Below are positions 8,111 through 56,870 of a DNA stretch of 64,000 nucleotides, piece after piece. The notes beneath the pieces were generated by a model. The model searched no databases, had not been told where the DNA came from, and saw only the letters and a list, made by a program, of their open reading frames with translations. The DNA is from Gallionella sp. GTDB lineage: Bacteria > Pseudomonadota > Gammaproteobacteria > Burkholderiales > Gallionellaceae. A program made the translations under genes and the position numbers. Positions within the stretch are counted from its first letter, which is position 1. The number at the start of each line of letters is the position of its first letter. The DNA is taken from positions 5,055-69,054 of the forward strand of contig JBARHR010000220.1 of NCBI GenBank assembly GCA_049799335.1, read 5' to 3'.

Positions 8111-8701
8111 TCAGTTCGGGAAGGCTTTGTGTTCTCTTGAAATTCTGTTGACGCGTTGCTCTAGCCGCGCGACATCTTCGCGCAGTGTGTCAACCTGCAA
8201 CAAGAACGCCGATATCAGACGCTGGTTAGCCAGGGTGGGCCGCTCCTCTGTGAGGTACTCGGTAACCGCGCGCGAAAAATTCACCACTCCATCCTTAACC
8301 TGCCTACGACTTGCCTGCGCGAGCCGAACAATGCGCTCGGCCACGACATCACCGGCAATGCTGCTCAAATCGTCCCCTGCGTCCCAGCGCAGATTGCGCG
8401 AAAGATAGAAAATCTCGGCAAGCAGCGAAGAATCTCCCTCACACTGGATTTCCCCCTGCGCAAGTTCATCTTGCAACGCCAGGCGGGGCAAAAGCGAGGG
8501 TGGAATGACGCACAAAGCGTCCCAAGGACTTGAAGGATCCGCATTCTGCAGCGTTCCATCCGGCTGGATTGTGTACGCGAACGAAAACGGGGCAACGTCA
8601 AAACGTGCGGTTTTCCCCGCTAGCGGTTTCAGCCTGTCCACCGCCCAGACATTTTGACCAAGCAAATGATTGAGTACGGCAGCTGACGGATGCGGAAACA
8701 C
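8111..8701 (-). CDS. ubiJ: SCP2-domain ubiquinone accessory factor UbiJ-like
   Basis: 196-aa ORF immediately upstream of ubiB on the same strand, which is the position of ubiJ in the E. coli ubiE-ubiJ-ubiB operon. It has an SCP2-like N-terminal half and a coiled C-terminus. Confidence 0.7.
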
Positions 8702-8704
8702 AGC

Positions 8705-9547
8705 CTAGGAACTGAGCGAAGTCTGTTGTATGCCGGCCAACAGCCAGACTGACTTATCGTCGGTGACATTCTTTTGTACGTGCCAGACCTCGTCTATGCT
8801 CTCATGATCTCCGTTGTTTTCCCGCAATTGACCGGTAAAGCGCACGCTCGCAACGGAAAATTCTCCTTCGTTGGCGACTTCCAGCAGCTCGCCATTGATC
8901 GTTACAACGTCGGTCTTCTGGGGCACCGGGTCGTCCCGTTCACTTAGCTGCATAGAAATTTCGGCAAACATTTCCGGCGTCGTGTACTCGCGAATGTCGT
9001 TCAGATCCTTGCGGTCATTCGCGGCTTGCAGGCGGATAAATGTGGTCTTGGCGCTACGCAAAAAATTGGCCGTAGGAAAATCGGCAGGAATGGCCGTGGT
9101 GGCGATCGCGCGATCTTCCTTCGGCGAATTGTTGAAACTGATGGGTTCGGACGTTGCGCCGTAAGCATTCCCGGCGCCAGCAGACTGCAGTGAATGCTGC
9201 TGTCTGCTGCGGAACATGGAAACAATAAAAAACACGGCCAGTCCCGCGAGGACAATCATCAATATGGTGCCCATACCTTGTCCCAGTCCCATGCTGGCGA
9301 ATAGCGCGCCGATTCCGGCACCAATGGCCAAGCCTGCCAATGGTCCCAGCCAGCGATTTCCAGGCTTTTGCGTCGACGAATTTGCCGGCGCCGGGGCGGC
9401 TGCAGGCGCCTTAGGCGCTTGCTGAGGCGCGATTGTGCGCTGCTTACCAAAGCTGCCGCCCCCACCAAACCGGCGAGCTTCCGCAATGCTTGAAAACAAT
9501 GCCAGACATGTAAATGTAATCGTAAGCAAAACAATAAAGCGCTTCAT
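8705..9547 (-). CDS. Tim44-like domain membrane protein
   Basis: Signal/anchor, Gly-rich TM segments, then a C-terminal Tim44-like domain (FLRSAKTTFIRLQAANDRKD...VWHVQKN...WLLAGIQQ). Its stop is 4 nt from the ubiJ start. Confidence 0.75.
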   Translation of the reverse strand: MKRFIVLLTITFTCLALFSSIAEARRFGGGGSFGKQRTIAPQQAPKAPAAAPAPANSSTQKPGNRWLGPLAGLAIGAGIGALFASMGLGQGMGTILMIVLAGLAVFFIVSMFRSRQQHSLQSAGAGNAYGATSEPISFNNSPKEDRAIATTAIPADFPTANFLRSAKTTFIRLQAANDRKDLNDIREYTTPEMFAEISMQLSERDDPVPQKTDVVTINGELLEVANEGEFSVASVRFTGQLRENNGDHESIDEVWHVQKNVTDDKSVWLLAGIQQTSLSS

Positions 9548-49476: not shown

Positions 49477-50301
49477 TCAATTTGCGGTCCAGTTTACCAA
49501 CCCGCCATATGACGTACCAAGCACGATCAGACCAAACGCAATCCGGTACCAGGCGAAAGCGGTGAAATCGTGATGGCTGATATAGCGCAGCAACCAGCGC
49601 ACGCACAGGAACGCGCTGATGAACGAAAAAATGCCGCCTACTGCAAACATGCCGAGATCCTGCGACTGAAATAAATCGCGGTACTTCACTACCTCGTAAA
49701 CGGTCGCTGCAGTCAGCGTCGGTATCGCCAGAAAAAATGAAAACTCGGTCGCAGCCTTGCGCGACAAACCAAATAACAGGCCGCCAATGATCGTCGAGCC
49801 CGAGCGGGACATACCCGGAATCAGCGCCAGCGTCTGGGCAAAACCGACCTTCAGCGCATCGGTCCAGCGCATCTCATCCACCTCTTCGACGGCAATATTG
49901 TGTTCGCGCTTCTCCGCCCACAGAATGATCAGGCCGCCAACGATGAACGCAAGCGCCACCGGCACCGGCGCAAACAGATGCGCCTTGATCGCCTTCGCAA
50001 ACAACAGACCGAGCACCGCGGCAGGTATAAACGCCACCATCAGATTGATGGCGAAACGTCTTGCCGCTTTCTCTGTGGCGAGGCCACCAACTACCACCAG
50101 TATCTTGGCGCGGTATTCCCAGCAAACTGCAAGGATCGCTGCGAACTGGATCACGATCTCAAATACTTTGCCCTTCTCGTCGTTGAAATTCAGCAAGTCG
50201 CCCGCGAGTATCAGGTGGCCGGTAGAAGAGATCGGCAGAAATTCGGTCAATCCTTCGACGACCCCGAGAATCGCGGCCTTGAGCAACAGCAATATGTCCA
50301 T
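49477..50301 (-). CDS. uppP: Undecaprenyl-diphosphate phosphatase
   Basis: The ATG at 50301 gives [29 protein letters not shown], plus PG(M)SRSGSTI. 274 aa, 8 TM. Confidence 0.95.
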
Positions 50302-50407
50302 GGAATCTGAAAATAGTGAAATTTGAATGGGCTCGTAACGGACAAAGCCCAACGAAGTCGCGATTATACCTTTCTCAACCAGCCAAATCCGTGACCGCCA
50401 TGAATCG

Positions 50408-50666
50408 TCAATCCGGAGTGGTCACAATTTCCAAATGGGTAAGCCGCACGAACGCGGCATCTCGCGACTCACCGCACAATTCCGTTGACGGTTGCAGCGT
50501 GCAACAAAATGACTGTCAGCTCGGGCTGACCGAAAATCGCGCACCGGTCATCAACGGTCAGTTGCACGCAACGCACTCCGGCGGGTTTGCCGTTTGGCAT
50601 TCCGGGGAAAGGCGAATTGATCGAAGGCGCGAAGCAACAGGTGGAGCAGTGGGGGCGGCAGGACAT
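50408..50666 (-). pseudogene. YkgJ-type Cys-cluster (CxxCxxCC) protein, apparently frameshifted
   Basis: The 65-aa [52 protein letters not shown]... loses the family pattern near 50515. The expected continuation [34 protein letters not shown] is intact in the +1 frame down to the stop at 50408. This is either a real frameshift or a sequencing error in a T-run. Confidence 0.55.
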
Positions 50667-50682: not shown

Positions 50683-50823
50683 TTAGAGTAGTTGCGGCAG
50701 TGCCTTCTTGATTGCTTCCCTCTGCGCTTTCCGCTCGGCCTTCCAGAATACCCGCTTGAACTCCTTTAAATGCCTCCACCACTGGGGGGCGGGCGTCAGA
50801 GTGCTTTGCTTTACATTTGCCAT
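50683..50823 (-). CDS. Small basic hypothetical protein (uncertain)
   Basis: 46-aa ORF from an internal ATG ([46 protein letters not shown]). It ends 17 nt before the ykgJ-like start and has native-looking composition. No family recognised. Confidence 0.3.
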
Positions 50824-50946
50824 ATTCCACTTTTCAATAATTCTATGTTGAGATGATAAGCCCAATGGTGCCTGCGGAATAATCGTTTTACACAAGAAAG
50901 GGAAAGGGTATTCTTCGCCGGCCTTCTAGATGGTTATACATACAGA

Positions 50947-52923
50947 ATGAAACGGGCATATTACTCAGCTTTGATTCCCGCCTTTCTTCGTGCATTAACT
51001 GAAGAAATTATGGGCGCATTGTCGCTCAACAACGACTATGCGCTCATTCAAACACAGCGTGACGCGTGGGCTGCGCAAATTGAGATGCTTCGCTCCACGC
51101 TGACTGGGCGCGAAGGCTCGATATATTTCGAATATTCGATTCCTCGTATGGGGCGAAGGATTGACGTTGTATTGTTGATCGGCCCGGTGATATTTGTTCT
51201 TGAGTTTAAAGTAGGCGAGAAAACACATACTACTTATGCTTTTGATCAGGTGTTTGACTACGCCTTGGATTTGAAGAACTTTCACGAATCAAGTCATGAA
51301 CAATTCATTGCGCCGGTCTTAGTTGCGACGGAAGCGGTGCAACTGCCAATAATGATTTCGTACACTCCAAGAAACGACAAACTGTTTATTCCAGTAAAAA
51401 CGAATAAAGAACAGCTAGGGGAAGTTCTAGTCGAAATATTGAAGTTGATTGGTGAAGGTAAAGTTGATGCAGGCGAATGGGAAGCCGGGCGCTATTGTCC
51501 CACGCCTACAATTATCGAAGCCGCAATGGCCTTGTATAACAACCACTCGGTTGTTGATATTACTCGTTACGATGCGGGTGCAACCAATCTAAGGCTTACT
51601 TCCTCTGCAATTTCTGAAGTTATTAATCTCTCTAAAGAACGTAAACATAAATCCGTCTGCTTGGTAACTGGCGTACCCGGTGCAGGGAAGACTTTAGTTG
51701 GGCTGGATATTGCGACAAAACACTCTGAGGCGGCAGACGATTTGTTCAGCGTGTATCTGTCTGGCAATGGCCCGCTTGTAAAGATTCTTTGCGAGGCGCT
51801 CGCACGTGACCAAGTCGATCGCGGAAAAAACAAAGGTAAGCGCGTAAAGATCGGAGAAGCAAGAAGCTCCGTAAAAGCCTTCATTCAAAATGTTCACCAC
51901 TTCAGAGATGAATGCTTGCGAGATGAAAACATCGCACCTATTGAACATGTAGCGATTTTCGATGAAGCGCAACGGGCTTGGAATGTCGAACAAACATCTT
52001 CGTTTATGCGACGCAAGAAGAATCATCCAAACTTCAGTCAGTCCGAGCCGGAGTTTCTTATCTCTTGCATGGATAGACACAAAGATTGGGCAGTAATTGT
52101 TTGCCTTGTAGGCGGAGGACAAGAAATCAATACGGGAGAAGCTGGAATTGGAGAGTGGGTTAGTTCAATAACGCGCACATTTCCAGACTGGCGCATCTAT
52201 ATTTCCTCTCGCTTGACGGATAGCGAATATCAGGCAGGTGCGGCGCTCAAGCAGCTTGCGTCTCACGCCAACGTAAGCTATTTGGATGAGTTGCATTTGG
52301 GTGTATCGATGCGGTCTTTCCGGGCAGAAGACGTATCACTTTTGGTAAAGCAGTTACTTGATTTAGAAATTGACTCGGCAAAACTTACTTACGAGAAAAT
52401 AAAGACTCGATATCCGATCGCAATTACAAGGGATTTAGGGAAGGCAAAGGCTTGGCTGAAGCGCAATGCCCGAGGCAGCGAGCGCTACGGGATTGTTGTT
52501 TCATCACAGGCTGAGCGATTAAAACCACATGCGATAGATGTTAGATCGCCAATGGACCCGGTGAATTGGTTCCTAAACGAAAAAGACGATGTTCGATCTT
52601 CCTACTACTTAGAGGATGTCGCGACCGAATTTCATGTTCAGGGACTGGAGTTGGATTGGACCTGTGTTACATGGGATGCCGACTTCCGTCATACAAAGAA
52701 CGGCTGGAGTCATCATTCATTTCGCGGAACTGGCTGGAACAGAATTAATATGGACGAGCGGAAGCAATATTTGAAAAATGCTTATCGAGTGTTGTTAACT
52801 AGGGCGCGGCAGGAAATGGTTTTGGTAGTGCCCAATGGTGATCTCGAAGATAGCACCCGCAGCCCCCAGTACTATGATGGCACCTTCAAATATCTGAAGG
52901 AAATTGGGTTTGTTGAAATCTGA
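50947..52923 (+). CDS. DUF2075-type protein: N-terminal PD-(D/E)xK-like nuclease signature + SF1 helicase-like P-loop NTPase
   Basis: 658 aa. Has RRIDVVLL...VLEFKVGEK (D73/E86/K88), Walker A GVPGAGKT (K248), a DEAQ box [10 protein letters not shown], and the C-terminal [17 protein letters not shown]+C is visibly lower than in the flanks. Confidence 0.85.
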
Positions 52924-52938
52924 CGAGGACTAATCACA

Positions 52939-53121
52939 ATGCAACTTCTAAAGCATCAGCCGGATTATCCAATATACTTCATCATGTCCGATCAGCCAGA
53001 CACCTGCGGATATTGTGGGGCGCGTCTTGAGTATCTTGCAATAAAGGAAATCGAAGGCGAGCGAGTTTTTGTTAACGAATGTTTAGGCTGCAAGCGTGAA
53101 ATACTAATGGTTGAAAGCTAA
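52939..53121 (+). CDS. Small zinc-ribbon-like protein (CxxC...CxxC)
   Basis: 60-aa ORF 16 nt after the DUF2075 stop, with GAGGA 9 nt upstream of the ATG. It has two Cys pairs (CGYCG ... CLGC) and the same low G+C as the upstream gene. Confidence 0.45.
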   Translation: MQLLKHQPDYPIYFIMSDQPDTCGYCGARLEYLAIKEIEGERVFVNECLGCKREILMVES

Positions 53122-53165
53122 ACGGACAGCATGTGCGGCCCGTTTGTTCGGCAAGATGAAAAGCC

Positions 53166-53415
53166 TCACGCCTTGAGATAAACCTCCGCCCCTGCTTCAC
53201 AAACTCTACCGACTTCACTTCCATCCTCTTCTGTAGCGCGGCCTGCTCGTCCAAGCCCTCCTTCGCAGCAAAGCCGCGCACGTCCCCTGGGAAATCTTCA
53301 TCGAACAGAAATGCAGGCCGCACATGGAGCAGAAGTAGATGACCTTTGCGATTACTTTGGGCAGTATCCGTCGAGATTATGCGTTTCCGCTATTGCGGTG
53401 TGTCGAGGCCGAGTG
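53166..53415 (-). pseudogene. thiC: Decayed duplicate of the thiC 3' end (last ~80 codons)
   Basis: Reads ...LGLDTPQ*...[44 protein letters not shown](frameshift)AEVYLKA*. Intact thiC reads ...LGLDPDR...[51 protein letters not shown]. The DNA is colinear with 54877-55119. Confidence 0.8.
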
Positions 53416-53689
53416 TTTTAGCATGCCGACTGATGCGGGCGATGATGTCGTCCATGAGCATGCGAGAGGCTTCGTCCGCCGTTTGCAGGGCTTCGAGAAA
53501 CAGTCCCGCTTCGGCCATGTATTCGTGAACGAGAAGATTGCGGAGTTTTCTTGCGCTAATGAATAATTCAGTGCTTTCCAACCAAGAATTCAGGAATAAC
53601 AAGGTCGCCGCAATACCGCGCGCGAGCGGATGGCGTATCAGGAATTGCGCGGTCCAAGTTGGCGGGTAATTCGCGTTTGCCAGCATCAA
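53390..53689 (-). CDS. HEPN-domain (DUF86/HepT-like) fragment, probably defective
   Basis: 99-aa ORF containing the Rx4H HEPN motif in ARKLRNLLVHEYM. It lacks the usual N-terminal ~50 aa of HepT proteins. Its last codons (..LGLDTPQ*) are thiC-derived. No intact MNT partner is present. Confidence 0.5.
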   Translation of the reverse strand: MMLANANYPPTWTAQFLIRHPLARGIAATLLFLNSWLESTELFISARKLRNLLVHEYMAEAGLFLEALQTADEASRMLMDDIIARISRHAKTLGLDTPQ

Positions 53690-53820: not shown

Positions 53821-54441
53821 TCAGGTTGCCCTGACTCGCTTTTTCGCGACAGGCACGCGTACACACCGCGCAACCTGGGTGGCGCTGTCTTCCAGATCAA
53901 ATGCCTTGGGGTCGAATTCGTCGCCCATCCACTCTAATATTTCCTCGTGCTCCGGATTGTTGGGGTCGGAGAACGCGGCGCATAGTCCGGCGTAACCCCA
54001 AGGCCCGCCGCAATCCTCTGGCGGGCAGGCATTTTCGCCGTCGATCAGCCGTGCGGGCGGTTCGCCCGGTTTTACGTCCACACGCTTTTCGATGGTTATT
54101 TCATGCCACCAGTCGTCACCGAAGTCATACCAGTATCGAAATTTCTTGTGGTGCGCGAGTGTTTCGCCGAGGCGATGTTTGTTTTCGGGAAGTGCAGTGT
54201 CGCCACCGAAAAAATTGTCCTCCTTGGAGGCTGTGCCGATACTCTGGCGGCCAACCTGAAATTCGTGCAGGTGGCAATCTTCCCATCCCATAGCCGCTTG
54301 TATTACATGGTGCAATTGCAGAAAGGTAAGGTTTGCGCTGACCATGACACGTCGCAGTACAGGAGGTTTGACATTCAGGAGCGTGATGCGCAGCTGCAGC
54401 ATTTGTTGCAGCGATACGCTTGAGGGCGTTTTGCTAGTCAT
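53821..54441 (-). CDS. Plasmid pRiA4b ORF-3-like family protein
   Basis: LQLRITLLNVKPPVLRRVMVSANLTFLQLHHVIQAAMGWEDCHLHEF ... YWYDFGDDWWHEITIEK is the hallmark of the PRiA4_ORF3 family. 206 aa. Confidence 0.8.
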   Translation of the reverse strand: MTSKTPSSVSLQQMLQLRITLLNVKPPVLRRVMVSANLTFLQLHHVIQAAMGWEDCHLHEFQVGRQSIGTASKEDNFFGGDTALPENKHRLGETLAHHKKFRYWYDFGDDWWHEITIEKRVDVKPGEPPARLIDGENACPPEDCGGPWGYAGLCAAFSDPNNPEHEEILEWMGDEFDPKAFDLEDSATQVARCVRVPVAKKRVRAT

Positions 54442-54598: not shown

Positions 54599-54817
54599 CT
54601 ATTTCTTTGTATCGTACTTGAAAGACAACGCAACTCTGGCGCGATAGGCAGTAACTTTGCCATCTTCGACGGCCATATCAAGTTTGACGACTTCGGCGAC
54701 TCGCAAGTCTCGCAGCGTTTTGGATGCCGCTTTGACGGCGTTTTCCGCGGCATCTTCCCAGGATTTTTTGCTGGTTCCAACGATTTCGGTGATACGGTAA
54801 ACACTGTCTGCTGCCAT
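54599..54817 (-). CDS. Dodecin-family flavin-binding protein
   Basis: 72 aa. VYRITEIVGTSKKSWEDAAENAVKAASKTLRDLRVAEVVKLDM.VEDGKV..YRA.V..SF is the dodecin pattern. Confidence 0.85.
   Translation of the reverse strand: MAADSVYRITEIVGTSKKSWEDAAENAVKAASKTLRDLRVAEVVKLDMAVEDGKVTAYRARVALSFKYDTKK

Positions 54818-54876: not shown

Positions 54877-56870
<1,994 letters not shown>

Follow-up and report, generated by a model that had tools for sequence, protein, structure and literature searches.

A probable anti-phage nuclease-helicase of the Nhi-like family (PDC-S41) beside thiC in a Gallionella genome

Proteins that combine a nuclease and a helicase in one chain and act against phages have been described from Staphylococcus and Bacillus. 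In Nhi of Staphylococcus epidermidis, the N-terminal 230 residues show 3'-5' exonuclease and nickase activity when isolated, whereas the complete protein is nearly inactive (10.1101/776245), and the helicase unwinds DNA from either overhang, i.e. bidirectionally (Bari et al., 10.1101/776245). A Bacillus protein was later named 'Nhi-like' for having the architecture of Nhi without sequence identity to it (Millman et al. 2022, 10.1101/2022.05.11.491447). The verified Nhi-like protein, from B. cereus FSL H8-0482, has 611 amino acids and figures as a single gene in both the tests and the family list (10.1101/2022.05.11.491447); escape from Nhi-like comes about when phages inactivate their own DNA methylase (10.1101/2022.08.27.505566). 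The DNA analysed here, a stretch of 64,000 nucleotides from Gallionella sp. (contig JBARHR010000220.1, hereafter the window), contains an intact gene for a 658-amino-acid protein next to thiC, for which a DUF2075-type nuclease-helicase and a stand-alone defence module had been proposed from the letters alone (the original prediction). The gene probably codes for an anti-phage nuclease-helicase of the Nhi-like family (PDC-S41) that consists of a single polypeptide, and it forms part of a small defence islet that has the thiC 3' end as its anchor.

Family membership and domains of the protein

The open reading frame (ORF) was found where it had been predicted and with all of its listed motifs, and the residue numbers D73, E86, K88 and K248 were correct. 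Its features are:

50947..52923, + strand: Nhi-like / PDC-S41 nuclease-helicase gene, intact, 658 amino acids, ATG start (ORF list, Pfam, PADLOC, BLASTP, AlphaFold2 model)
50947..51642, + strand: N-terminal PD-(D/E)xK nuclease domain, residues 1-232, with E62, D73, E86-x-K88 and Q101-xxx-Y105 (conservation, predicted core, Foldseek)
51649..52833, + strand: superfamily 1 (SF1) helicase core, residues 235-629, with Walker A G242-T249, Walker B D339-E340 and Q342-R343, and motif VI R614/R619/R621 (Pfam, invariant columns, Foldseek)

Among the PADLOC defence models, PDC-S41 matched the protein over its full length (936.5 bits, E=1.9e-282, residues 1-657 on positions 1-652 of the 657 in the model), and the protein is a member of this family. 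The predicted DUF2075, or Schlafen-group-3-like, helicase was recovered as Pfam PF09848 (SLFN-g3_helicase, formerly DUF2075), residues 235-629 aligning to positions 1-353 of the 354-position model with 274.5 bits (E 1.9e-81), against a gathering cut-off of 24 bits. No NCBIfam model matched the protein; sequence searches of the PDB gave nothing useful with the full protein, and a profile search with the N-terminal part was empty.

The proposed link to Nhi-type proteins held for the Nhi-like family and failed for Staphylococcus Nhi itself. The PADLOC Nhi model reached 21.4 bits and covered residues 231-261 only, that is the P-loop, and a match to AbiO was likewise at the level of the P-loop. The verified B. 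cereus protein was compared by way of the first 399 of its 611 residues, which are given in the supplement of Millman et al. With BLASTP it was 29% identical to the window protein over 392 columns (E = 2e-39), in a collinear alignment to residues 27-408 that spans the nuclease motifs as well as Walker A and B. The B. cereus protein itself matched PDC-S41 best (8.8e-76) and the Nhi model weakly (6e-07), and PDC-S41 therefore denotes the Nhi-like family by another name. No paper using the label 'PDC-S41' was found in the full-text literature. Full-length matches of about 29% identity on megaplasmids of the Bacillus cereus group fit the assignment. Ferriphaselus amnicola OYT1 is listed for the Nhi-like family in Table S17 of Millman et al., and its genome carries an 83%-identical syntenic orthologue beside thiC. 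A paper on bacterial Schlafen proteins deals with the RNase domain and not with this helicase. The Nhi-like family has already been described and validated, and the window protein adds a member to it.

The family is large, with 4,975 protein clusters (50% level) at E <= 1e-3 and 1,119 at E <= 1e-30, many of them aligned over the full length. The closest 120 matches were 72-94% identical and nearly all exactly 658 amino acids long, those with names belonging to Gallionellaceae/Nitrosomonadales. Full-length members with 43-50% identity were seen on the Persicobacter plasmids CP012854 and CP012865 (Bacteroidota), on several viral contigs and in MT836127 (a gut 'Bacteriophage sp.'), and members of about 29% identity were also seen on viral contigs, the IMG/VR loci with family members being L166-L172 (handles of this form denote the loci compared here). 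The presence on plasmids and viral contigs indicates that the family also travels on mobile elements.

The predicted order of a nuclease ahead of an SF1 helicase was borne out by a conserved PD-(D/E)xK centre in front of the SF1 core, and both are intact in the window protein. The nuclease signature consists of RRIDVVLL at residue 70 and VLEFKVGEK at residue 84. E62, E86, K88, Q101 and Y105 were invariant and D73, R67 and R71 at least 90% conserved in 69 full-length homologues of 34-83% identity, and all six of E62, D73, E86, K88, Q101 and Y105 were invariant among 34 N-terminal domains. Related N-termini gave sub-threshold Pfam matches within the same clan, chiefly to NERD (13 of 34, best E 0.0031), with a few further ones to PDDEXK_9, HSDR_N, PDDEXK_1, CoiA_nuc and Cas4. 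When residues 1-232 were modelled alone (mean predicted local distance difference test, pLDDT, 87.6), an alpha-beta-beta-beta-alpha-beta core was obtained, in which D73 lies on the second strand (70-78), E86-x-K88 on the third (81-88) and Q101-xxx-Y105 on the next helix. Foldseek matches of this domain were almost exclusively PD-(D/E)xK enzymes, including McrC, Cdn1, Can2, Card1, the Cas4-like ACE1, Hjc, the DdmD nuclease and a restriction-enzyme subunit. Motif, conservation and predicted fold together support the nuclease fold well, and the domain is accordingly annotated as a putative nuclease.

In the helicase part, GVPGAGKT starts at residue 242, the Walker-B motif [10 protein letters not shown] at residue 336 and the C-terminal SF1 motif [16 protein letters not shown] at residue 613. 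Walker A G242-T249, Walker B D339/E340/Q342/R343 and motif VI R614/R619/R621 were invariant in the 69 homologues. The AlphaFold2 model of the full-length protein (pLDDT 90.1, predicted template modelling score 0.87) had the helicase domains of SLFN11 and SLFN14 as its top Foldseek matches, followed by RecD, Dna2, Upf1 and nsp13; PcrA was also matched. The helicase part is assigned to SF1 on the basis of the model, because its nearest solved structures are SLFN11/SLFN14, RecD, Dna2, Upf1 and nsp13. A Schlafen-core (AlbA_2-type) RNase domain is absent, the Pfam match being limited to the helicase domain and the N-terminus being of the PD-(D/E)xK type.

An accessory insert at the thiC-uppP junction

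The gene lies in a slot between uppP and thiC, with the following features around it:

49477..50352, - strand: uppP (BacA), left anchor of the slot, which directly abuts thiC in insert-free genomes (ORF and locus comparison)
50414..50666, - strand: CxxCxxCC (YkgJ-type) pseudogene, frameshifted, a resident neighbour outside the low-G+C block, with native G+C of 0.57 (tblastn)
~50700..~53100, no strand: low-G+C block (~0.40-0.50 per 200-nt window), comprising the helicase gene, a small ORF and ~250 nt upstream (G+C scan)
52939..53121, + strand: conserved 60-amino-acid CxxC...CxxC (zinc-ribbon-like) ORF (ORF list, clusters, dN/dS)
54877..56778, - strand: thiC, constant right anchor of the slot, the ATG at 56748 being its likely true start (ORF and locus comparisons)

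To sample the locus independently of the helicase, genomes were scanned with ThiC, giving at least 80 loci with ThiC identities of 73-87%; these and the other genome and metagenome locus counts are those of samples and not censuses. The helicase was within 10 kb of thiC in none of the 80 listed loci. Ten of the 24 loci holding both genes had thiC and uppP only 16-266 bp apart, and one Gallionella metagenome-assembled genome showed thiC-uppP-yggX-ppk in the same order as the window and free of the insert. In all three relatives found through protein search, the helicase had thiC on one side and uppP, or small genes near it, on the other, which had at first suggested a conserved resident gene, a view overturned by the unbiased thiC-centred sample. 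Among loci retrieved via the protein or the small ORF, the helicase was at the thiC site only in members at least 72% identical (the window, L001, L003, L004, L086-L088, L137, L173, L176 and L179-L183), more distant family members being found at unrelated loci. Because none of the 80 thiC-sampled loci carries the helicase and only the members of at least 72% identity sit at thiC, the gene is an accessory insert, fixed beside thiC in one subclade of Gallionellaceae and absent from many relatives. Its presence in some relatives and absence from others agree with the insertion hot spot of the original prediction.

In carriers representing four different left flanks, the homologous DNA sets in at the start codon of the helicase, or 95 bp ahead of it at most, and extends past the small ORF into the former thiC end. 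The ORFs included no integrase or transposase, and neither a tRNA nor terminal repeats were found around the helicase; these are the features by which an integrative mobile element or genomic island would be recognised. In the wider surroundings no tRNA was present within 40-64 kb, and the region of 46-58 kb showed no ORF for an integrase, transposase or methyltransferase, not all of its ORFs having been scanned against profile libraries. A 70-amino-acid ORF at 50683-50895 (-) was rejected as spurious, having no family match and lying on DNA that, upstream of 50852, is not shared with other carriers.

The low-G+C islet was likewise real. The counts made by hand on single 60-nt lines (28, 22 and 25 of 60 in the block, 34 of 60 in uppP and 36 of 60 in thiC) were exact, and the block is the most AT-rich stretch of about 2 kb in the window (0.46 vs 0.54). 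The helicase gene has a G+C content of 0.460, compared with a mean of 0.539 (standard deviation 0.023) for all 1977-nt windows of the 64 kb; only 0.5% of these are as AT-rich, and the minimum (0.455) starts at 50801. The dip is no chance fluctuation. Orthologues at the locus in all relatives, with native composition, had been named beforehand as evidence against a defence islet; syntenic orthologues exist in many relatives, but the helicase gene is AT-rich in every carrier. At the thiC site its G+C was 0.45-0.47 and its G+C at third codon positions (GC3) 0.42-0.47, compared with a GC3 of 0.67-0.84 for thiC and uppP (carriers in the GC3 comparison: the window, L001, L003, L004, L173, L176, L179 and L181). 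In the family as a whole, usable flanks were available for 68 loci, from hosts of 30 to 69% G+C, and at 62 of these the gene was poorer in G+C than the DNA around it. The mean difference was 6.6 points.

Synonymous sites were saturated between carriers (proportion of synonymous differences, pS, 0.76; of nonsynonymous differences, pN, 0.12), and the gene is therefore not a recent arrival that has still to ameliorate; judged from these sequence comparisons, the insertion is old and syntenic within the subclade. The helicase and ThiC trees were incongruent. ThiC of the window is nearest to that of L088 (90.4%); its helicase is nearest to those of L003 and L001 (84% and 83%), the one of L088 being 78.6% identical. 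This pattern points to recurrent allele exchange within the clade by recombination in the conserved flanks, perhaps from an AT-rich pool. Alternatively, composition may be under selection: the AT-richness at a fixed site, rather than marking a recent transfer, could be actively maintained, e.g. for silencing by a nucleoid protein.

Other genomes have different cargo in the same slot, much of it related to defence:

L009 (Sideroxyarcus): C5 methylase, HNH endonuclease and Vsr, plus a Bro-N/PDC-S13 protein
L010: NOV_C/PDC-S36 protein
L038: GmrSD-type enzyme
L004: helicase, Mrr-type nuclease and HepT/MNT
L173: helicase, MazE/PemK, Phd, TacA/GNAT and HepT/MNT
L181-L183: helicase, Phd/ParE, ORF6N, VapBC and Bro-N genes

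The thiC-uppP junction is a hot spot for defence and toxin-antitoxin genes that is free of integrases. In two loci (L174 7218-7994 and L177 4366-5142) a 258-amino-acid HNH (HNH_2) protein, with a PADLOC HNH match of 3.7e-119, occupies the place of the helicase. The last 40 helicase codons are left at L177 5879-6001, just upstream of the small ORF and with 80% identity to residues 618-657, and the HNH gene therefore replaced the helicase directly. L178 also keeps this 40-codon remnant, fused ahead of the small ORF.

The frameshifted gene predicted upstream of the helicase is the YkgJ-type pseudogene at 50414-50666 (-). Its two frames overlap at 50520-50545 and have 67% and 48-57% identity to the genes of L003 and L001 (tblastn). 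An intact YkgJ-type gene was seen in L001, L003, L173 and L174, with a DUF1289 gene next to it that is missing from the window. The thiC ORF as listed begins with a GTG, 30 nt ahead of an ATG (MNANPQFL...) corresponding to the thiC start in relatives, and in view of these sequences the shorter form, starting at 56748, is probably the correct one.

On the other side of the helicase, a secondary insertion of 1.7 kb separates it from thiC:

53167..53335, - strand: original thiC 3' end, now displaced, comprising the last ~56 codons with two frameshifts (thiC comparison)
53390..53689, - strand: truncated remnant of a 164-amino-acid HepT-like gene, in the secondary insertion (RNLLVHEY motif and homology to L173)
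53821..54441, - strand: PRiA4_ORF3-family gene, 206 amino acids, in the secondary insertion (Pfam PF07929, 3.7e-62)
54599..54817, - strand: dodecin gene, 72 amino acids, beside thiC (Pfam PF07311, 1.3e-26)

The decayed thiC copy of the original prediction is the first of these. It has 79% nucleotide identity to the 3' end of the live thiC (54877-55045), and a 102-nt direct repeat (53184-53285 vs 54896-54997, 1712 nt apart) is 75% identical. Its restored stop is 46 nt from the stop of the small ORF, a gap of about 45 nt in L001 and L003. As the two thiC copies of the window are only 75-79% identical, the incoming cassette must have brought a foreign thiC 3' end with it. The HepT-like remnant corresponds to the C-terminal third of the gene, with 80% identity to the C-terminal 65 amino acids of L173 9337-9831; it has no significant Pfam match, the assignment resting on the motif and on the weak MNT-like gene which adjoins the full HepT-like gene in L173 and L174. 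L174 shows the same layout of remnant plus cassette, with a thiC 3' end copy at 8227-8343, and L173 has two thiC remnants (8232-8348 and 9154-9363), one per toxin-antitoxin module. Small cassettes have thus entered at the thiC 3' end repeatedly, each with a replacement 3' end, and separately from the insertion of the helicase. In L137 a dodecin gene is likewise found between the helicase and thiC.

The small downstream ORF and other readings of the locus

The original prediction of a stand-alone module lacking a second large partner, placed at 50830-53130, was right as to the helicase ORF within these coordinates, and no integrase or methyltransferase was seen among the nearby ORFs, but it overlooked the conserved 60-amino-acid ORF at 52939-53121, which follows the helicase in this subclade. 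The small ORF starts 15 nt past the helicase stop behind a GAGGA, shares the low G+C content of the helicase gene (0.43), and has two CxxC pairs and an IMSDQPD motif. Its family comprises 62 protein clusters, all of about 60 amino acids and 59-100% identical. A median dN/dS (ratio of nonsynonymous to synonymous substitution rates) of 0.15 indicates purifying selection, and all four cysteines are kept. It was found in the window, L001, L003, L086, L087, L089, L090, L092 and L173-L183, and in the subclade there are 16 loci at which it lies downstream of the helicase.

These properties raise the possibility of a two-gene system, in which the helicase-nuclease of this lineage would not be stand-alone and would need the zinc-ribbon-like protein as a regulator, an antitoxin-like brake or a trigger sensor. 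The short spacing, the shared composition, the selection on the ORF and its place after the helicase in the 16 loci speak for such a system. It is nevertheless an improbable one. The small ORF was present in 6 of 70 wider-family loci and absent from the other 64, including the close members L004, L088 and L091, it has no significant family match in Pfam or PADLOC, and the verified Bacillus protein was tested and listed on its own. The small ORF is moreover independent of the helicase, being intact where the latter was deleted or replaced by the HNH gene (L174, L177). That it might be a modular partner of helicase and HNH protein alike was considered and rejected, the 40-codon remnant in L177 pointing to simple replacement. 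The small ORF is a real gene and a subclade-specific companion of the helicase, most likely an accessory confined to this lineage rather than an obligatory subunit. There is some slight chance of a two-component variant, in which the Nhi-like enzyme has gained a dedicated 60-amino-acid zinc-ribbon partner as a brake or trigger sensor; the partner would then have a function of its own, because it was kept intact after the HNH gene replaced the helicase.

A housekeeping role is very unlikely. The protein would then be a helicase-nuclease of DNA repair or recombination, similar to RecB, AddA or Dna2 and located beside thiC by chance. The strong conservation, constant length and conserved position within the subclade would agree with this, as would the RecB/Cas4-type QxxxY motif, the structural likeness to RecD and Dna2, and the frequency of housekeeping neighbours at other loci. 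A housekeeping gene would, however, hardly be missing from all 80 listed thiC-sampled genomes, the closest ThiC relatives having thiC abutting uppP, nor be AT-rich relative to its host in 62 of 68 loci. In two lineages an HNH defence gene took its place with no sign of compensation, and the protein is a homologue of one verified in phage defence, with relatives on plasmids and viral contigs.

Equally doubtful is a small mobile element that targets the thiC 3' end and is served in its mobility or maintenance, rather than in host defence, by the helicase-nuclease: the recurrent duplications of the thiC 3' end (one each in the window and L174, two in L173), the turnover of gene content around a constant thiC anchor and the disagreement of the helicase and thiC trees suit it, but the thiC remnants bracket toxin-antitoxin-type insertions and not the helicase, neither an integrase or transposase among the ORFs nor a tRNA or terminal inverted repeats came to light, the carriers share homology from the helicase start codon on and have no conserved end sequences, and distant family members are at unrelated loci.

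Several observations weigh against the assignment as an anti-phage nuclease-helicase. The phage-defence phenotype in this family is known from the Bacillus protein alone, to which the proteobacterial branch is related by homology; the identity to the verified protein is only 29%, over its first 399 residues. The entry of Ferriphaselus amnicola in Table S17 is only probably that of the syntenic orthologue. The N-terminus of the window protein has no Pfam match of its own, and the Foldseek E-values of the nuclease domain are marginal (best 1.4e-3, range 1e-3 to 1e-1). Scans for promoters and terminators performed no better than on shuffled sequence. The subfamily is conserved unusually strongly for a defence gene (72-94% identity, constant 658 amino acids, pN 0.12), and the neighbours of distant family members are often housekeeping genes.

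About 12 of 82 neighbours of these distant members were of defence type, counting the two nearest ORFs per side, an approximate number, as more than one family can match the same protein and the count has no control set. They included SoFic, AbiEi/Eii, SspH, PDC-S02, HNH, a methylase, two further DUF2075 proteins and a DUF1848 protein matching a PADLOC DRT-associated model. In L109 (3764-5737) and L135 (3540-5582), a second and different DUF2075 protein is encoded directly upstream of the PDC-S41 gene, the one of L135 having a C-terminal Peptidase_S24 domain and a weak match to GIY-YIG.

Possible mode of action and comparison with known systems

By homology and analogy with the described proteins, the anti-phage nuclease-helicase would act in a few steps. 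The helicase would load on invading DNA and translocate at the expense of ATP, and the N-terminal nuclease would nick or degrade the DNA, which would keep phage DNA from accumulating. As in Staphylococcus Nhi, the complete enzyme is probably held in an auto-inhibited state up to the encounter with its substrate. The least certain step is the distinction of self from non-self. Recognition of modified DNA, similar to that by type IV restriction enzymes, is the leading guess, because phages escape the Bacillus Nhi-like protein by losing their own DNA methylase; alternatively, replication intermediates of the phage may be sensed, as has been proposed for Nhi.

Current concepts are unchanged by this locus, and its interest is mainly in the tidy hot spot, the persistent AT-richness and the small ORF. 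The tie between PDC-S41, a nameless PADLOC candidate, and a validated defence family allows proteobacterial and metagenomic matches to PDC-S41 to be read with more confidence. A compact, integrase-free and thiC-anchored defence hot spot is documented in iron-oxidising Betaproteobacteria, where the replacement of the helicase by the HNH gene and the serial insertions with thiC 3' footprints provide a natural system for following the turnover of islets by recombination. The conserved and abundant proteobacterial branch, with its confident structural model, would also be a good biochemical subject for the Nhi-like mechanism, including the sensing of methylated DNA.

The closest known system is Nhi-like itself. 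It shares with the window protein the N-terminal PD-(D/E)xK nuclease followed by a DUF2075 SF1 helicase, the best match to PDC-S41, and the motifs FEY, D, ExK, PTPxxxEAA, Gx[23 protein letters not shown] and GxGQEI. The window protein differs in its length (658 vs 611 amino acids), its proteobacterial host, its chromosomal thiC-anchored slot and the subclade-specific 60-amino-acid ORF downstream. Nhi of S. epidermidis (SERP2475) is also a single protein with an N-terminal PD-(D/E)xK nuclease of about 230 residues ahead of a DUF2075 SF1 helicase, and the logic of degrading phage DNA is plausibly shared, but a sequence relationship to the window protein is undetectable beyond the P-loop (about 30 residues in the PADLOC Nhi model). 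The nuclease of Nhi is HsdR-like, whereas that of the window protein has the RecB/Cas4-type QxxxY motif and weak NERD-like matches; the escape routes differ too, leading through the phage single-stranded DNA-binding protein for Nhi and the phage methylase for Nhi-like.

The group III Schlafen proteins SLFN11 and SLFN14 have PF09848 in common with the window protein and are the best structural matches of its full-length model. They differ from it in that the window protein has the PD-(D/E)xK domain in place of the Schlafen-core RNase, and the TM-scores over the whole chain are about 0.3. Hna, DdmD and HmaA likewise fuse a helicase motor and a nuclease in one defence polypeptide, but their helicases belong to superfamily 2, their nucleases are C-terminal, and their sequences are unrelated to that of the window protein.

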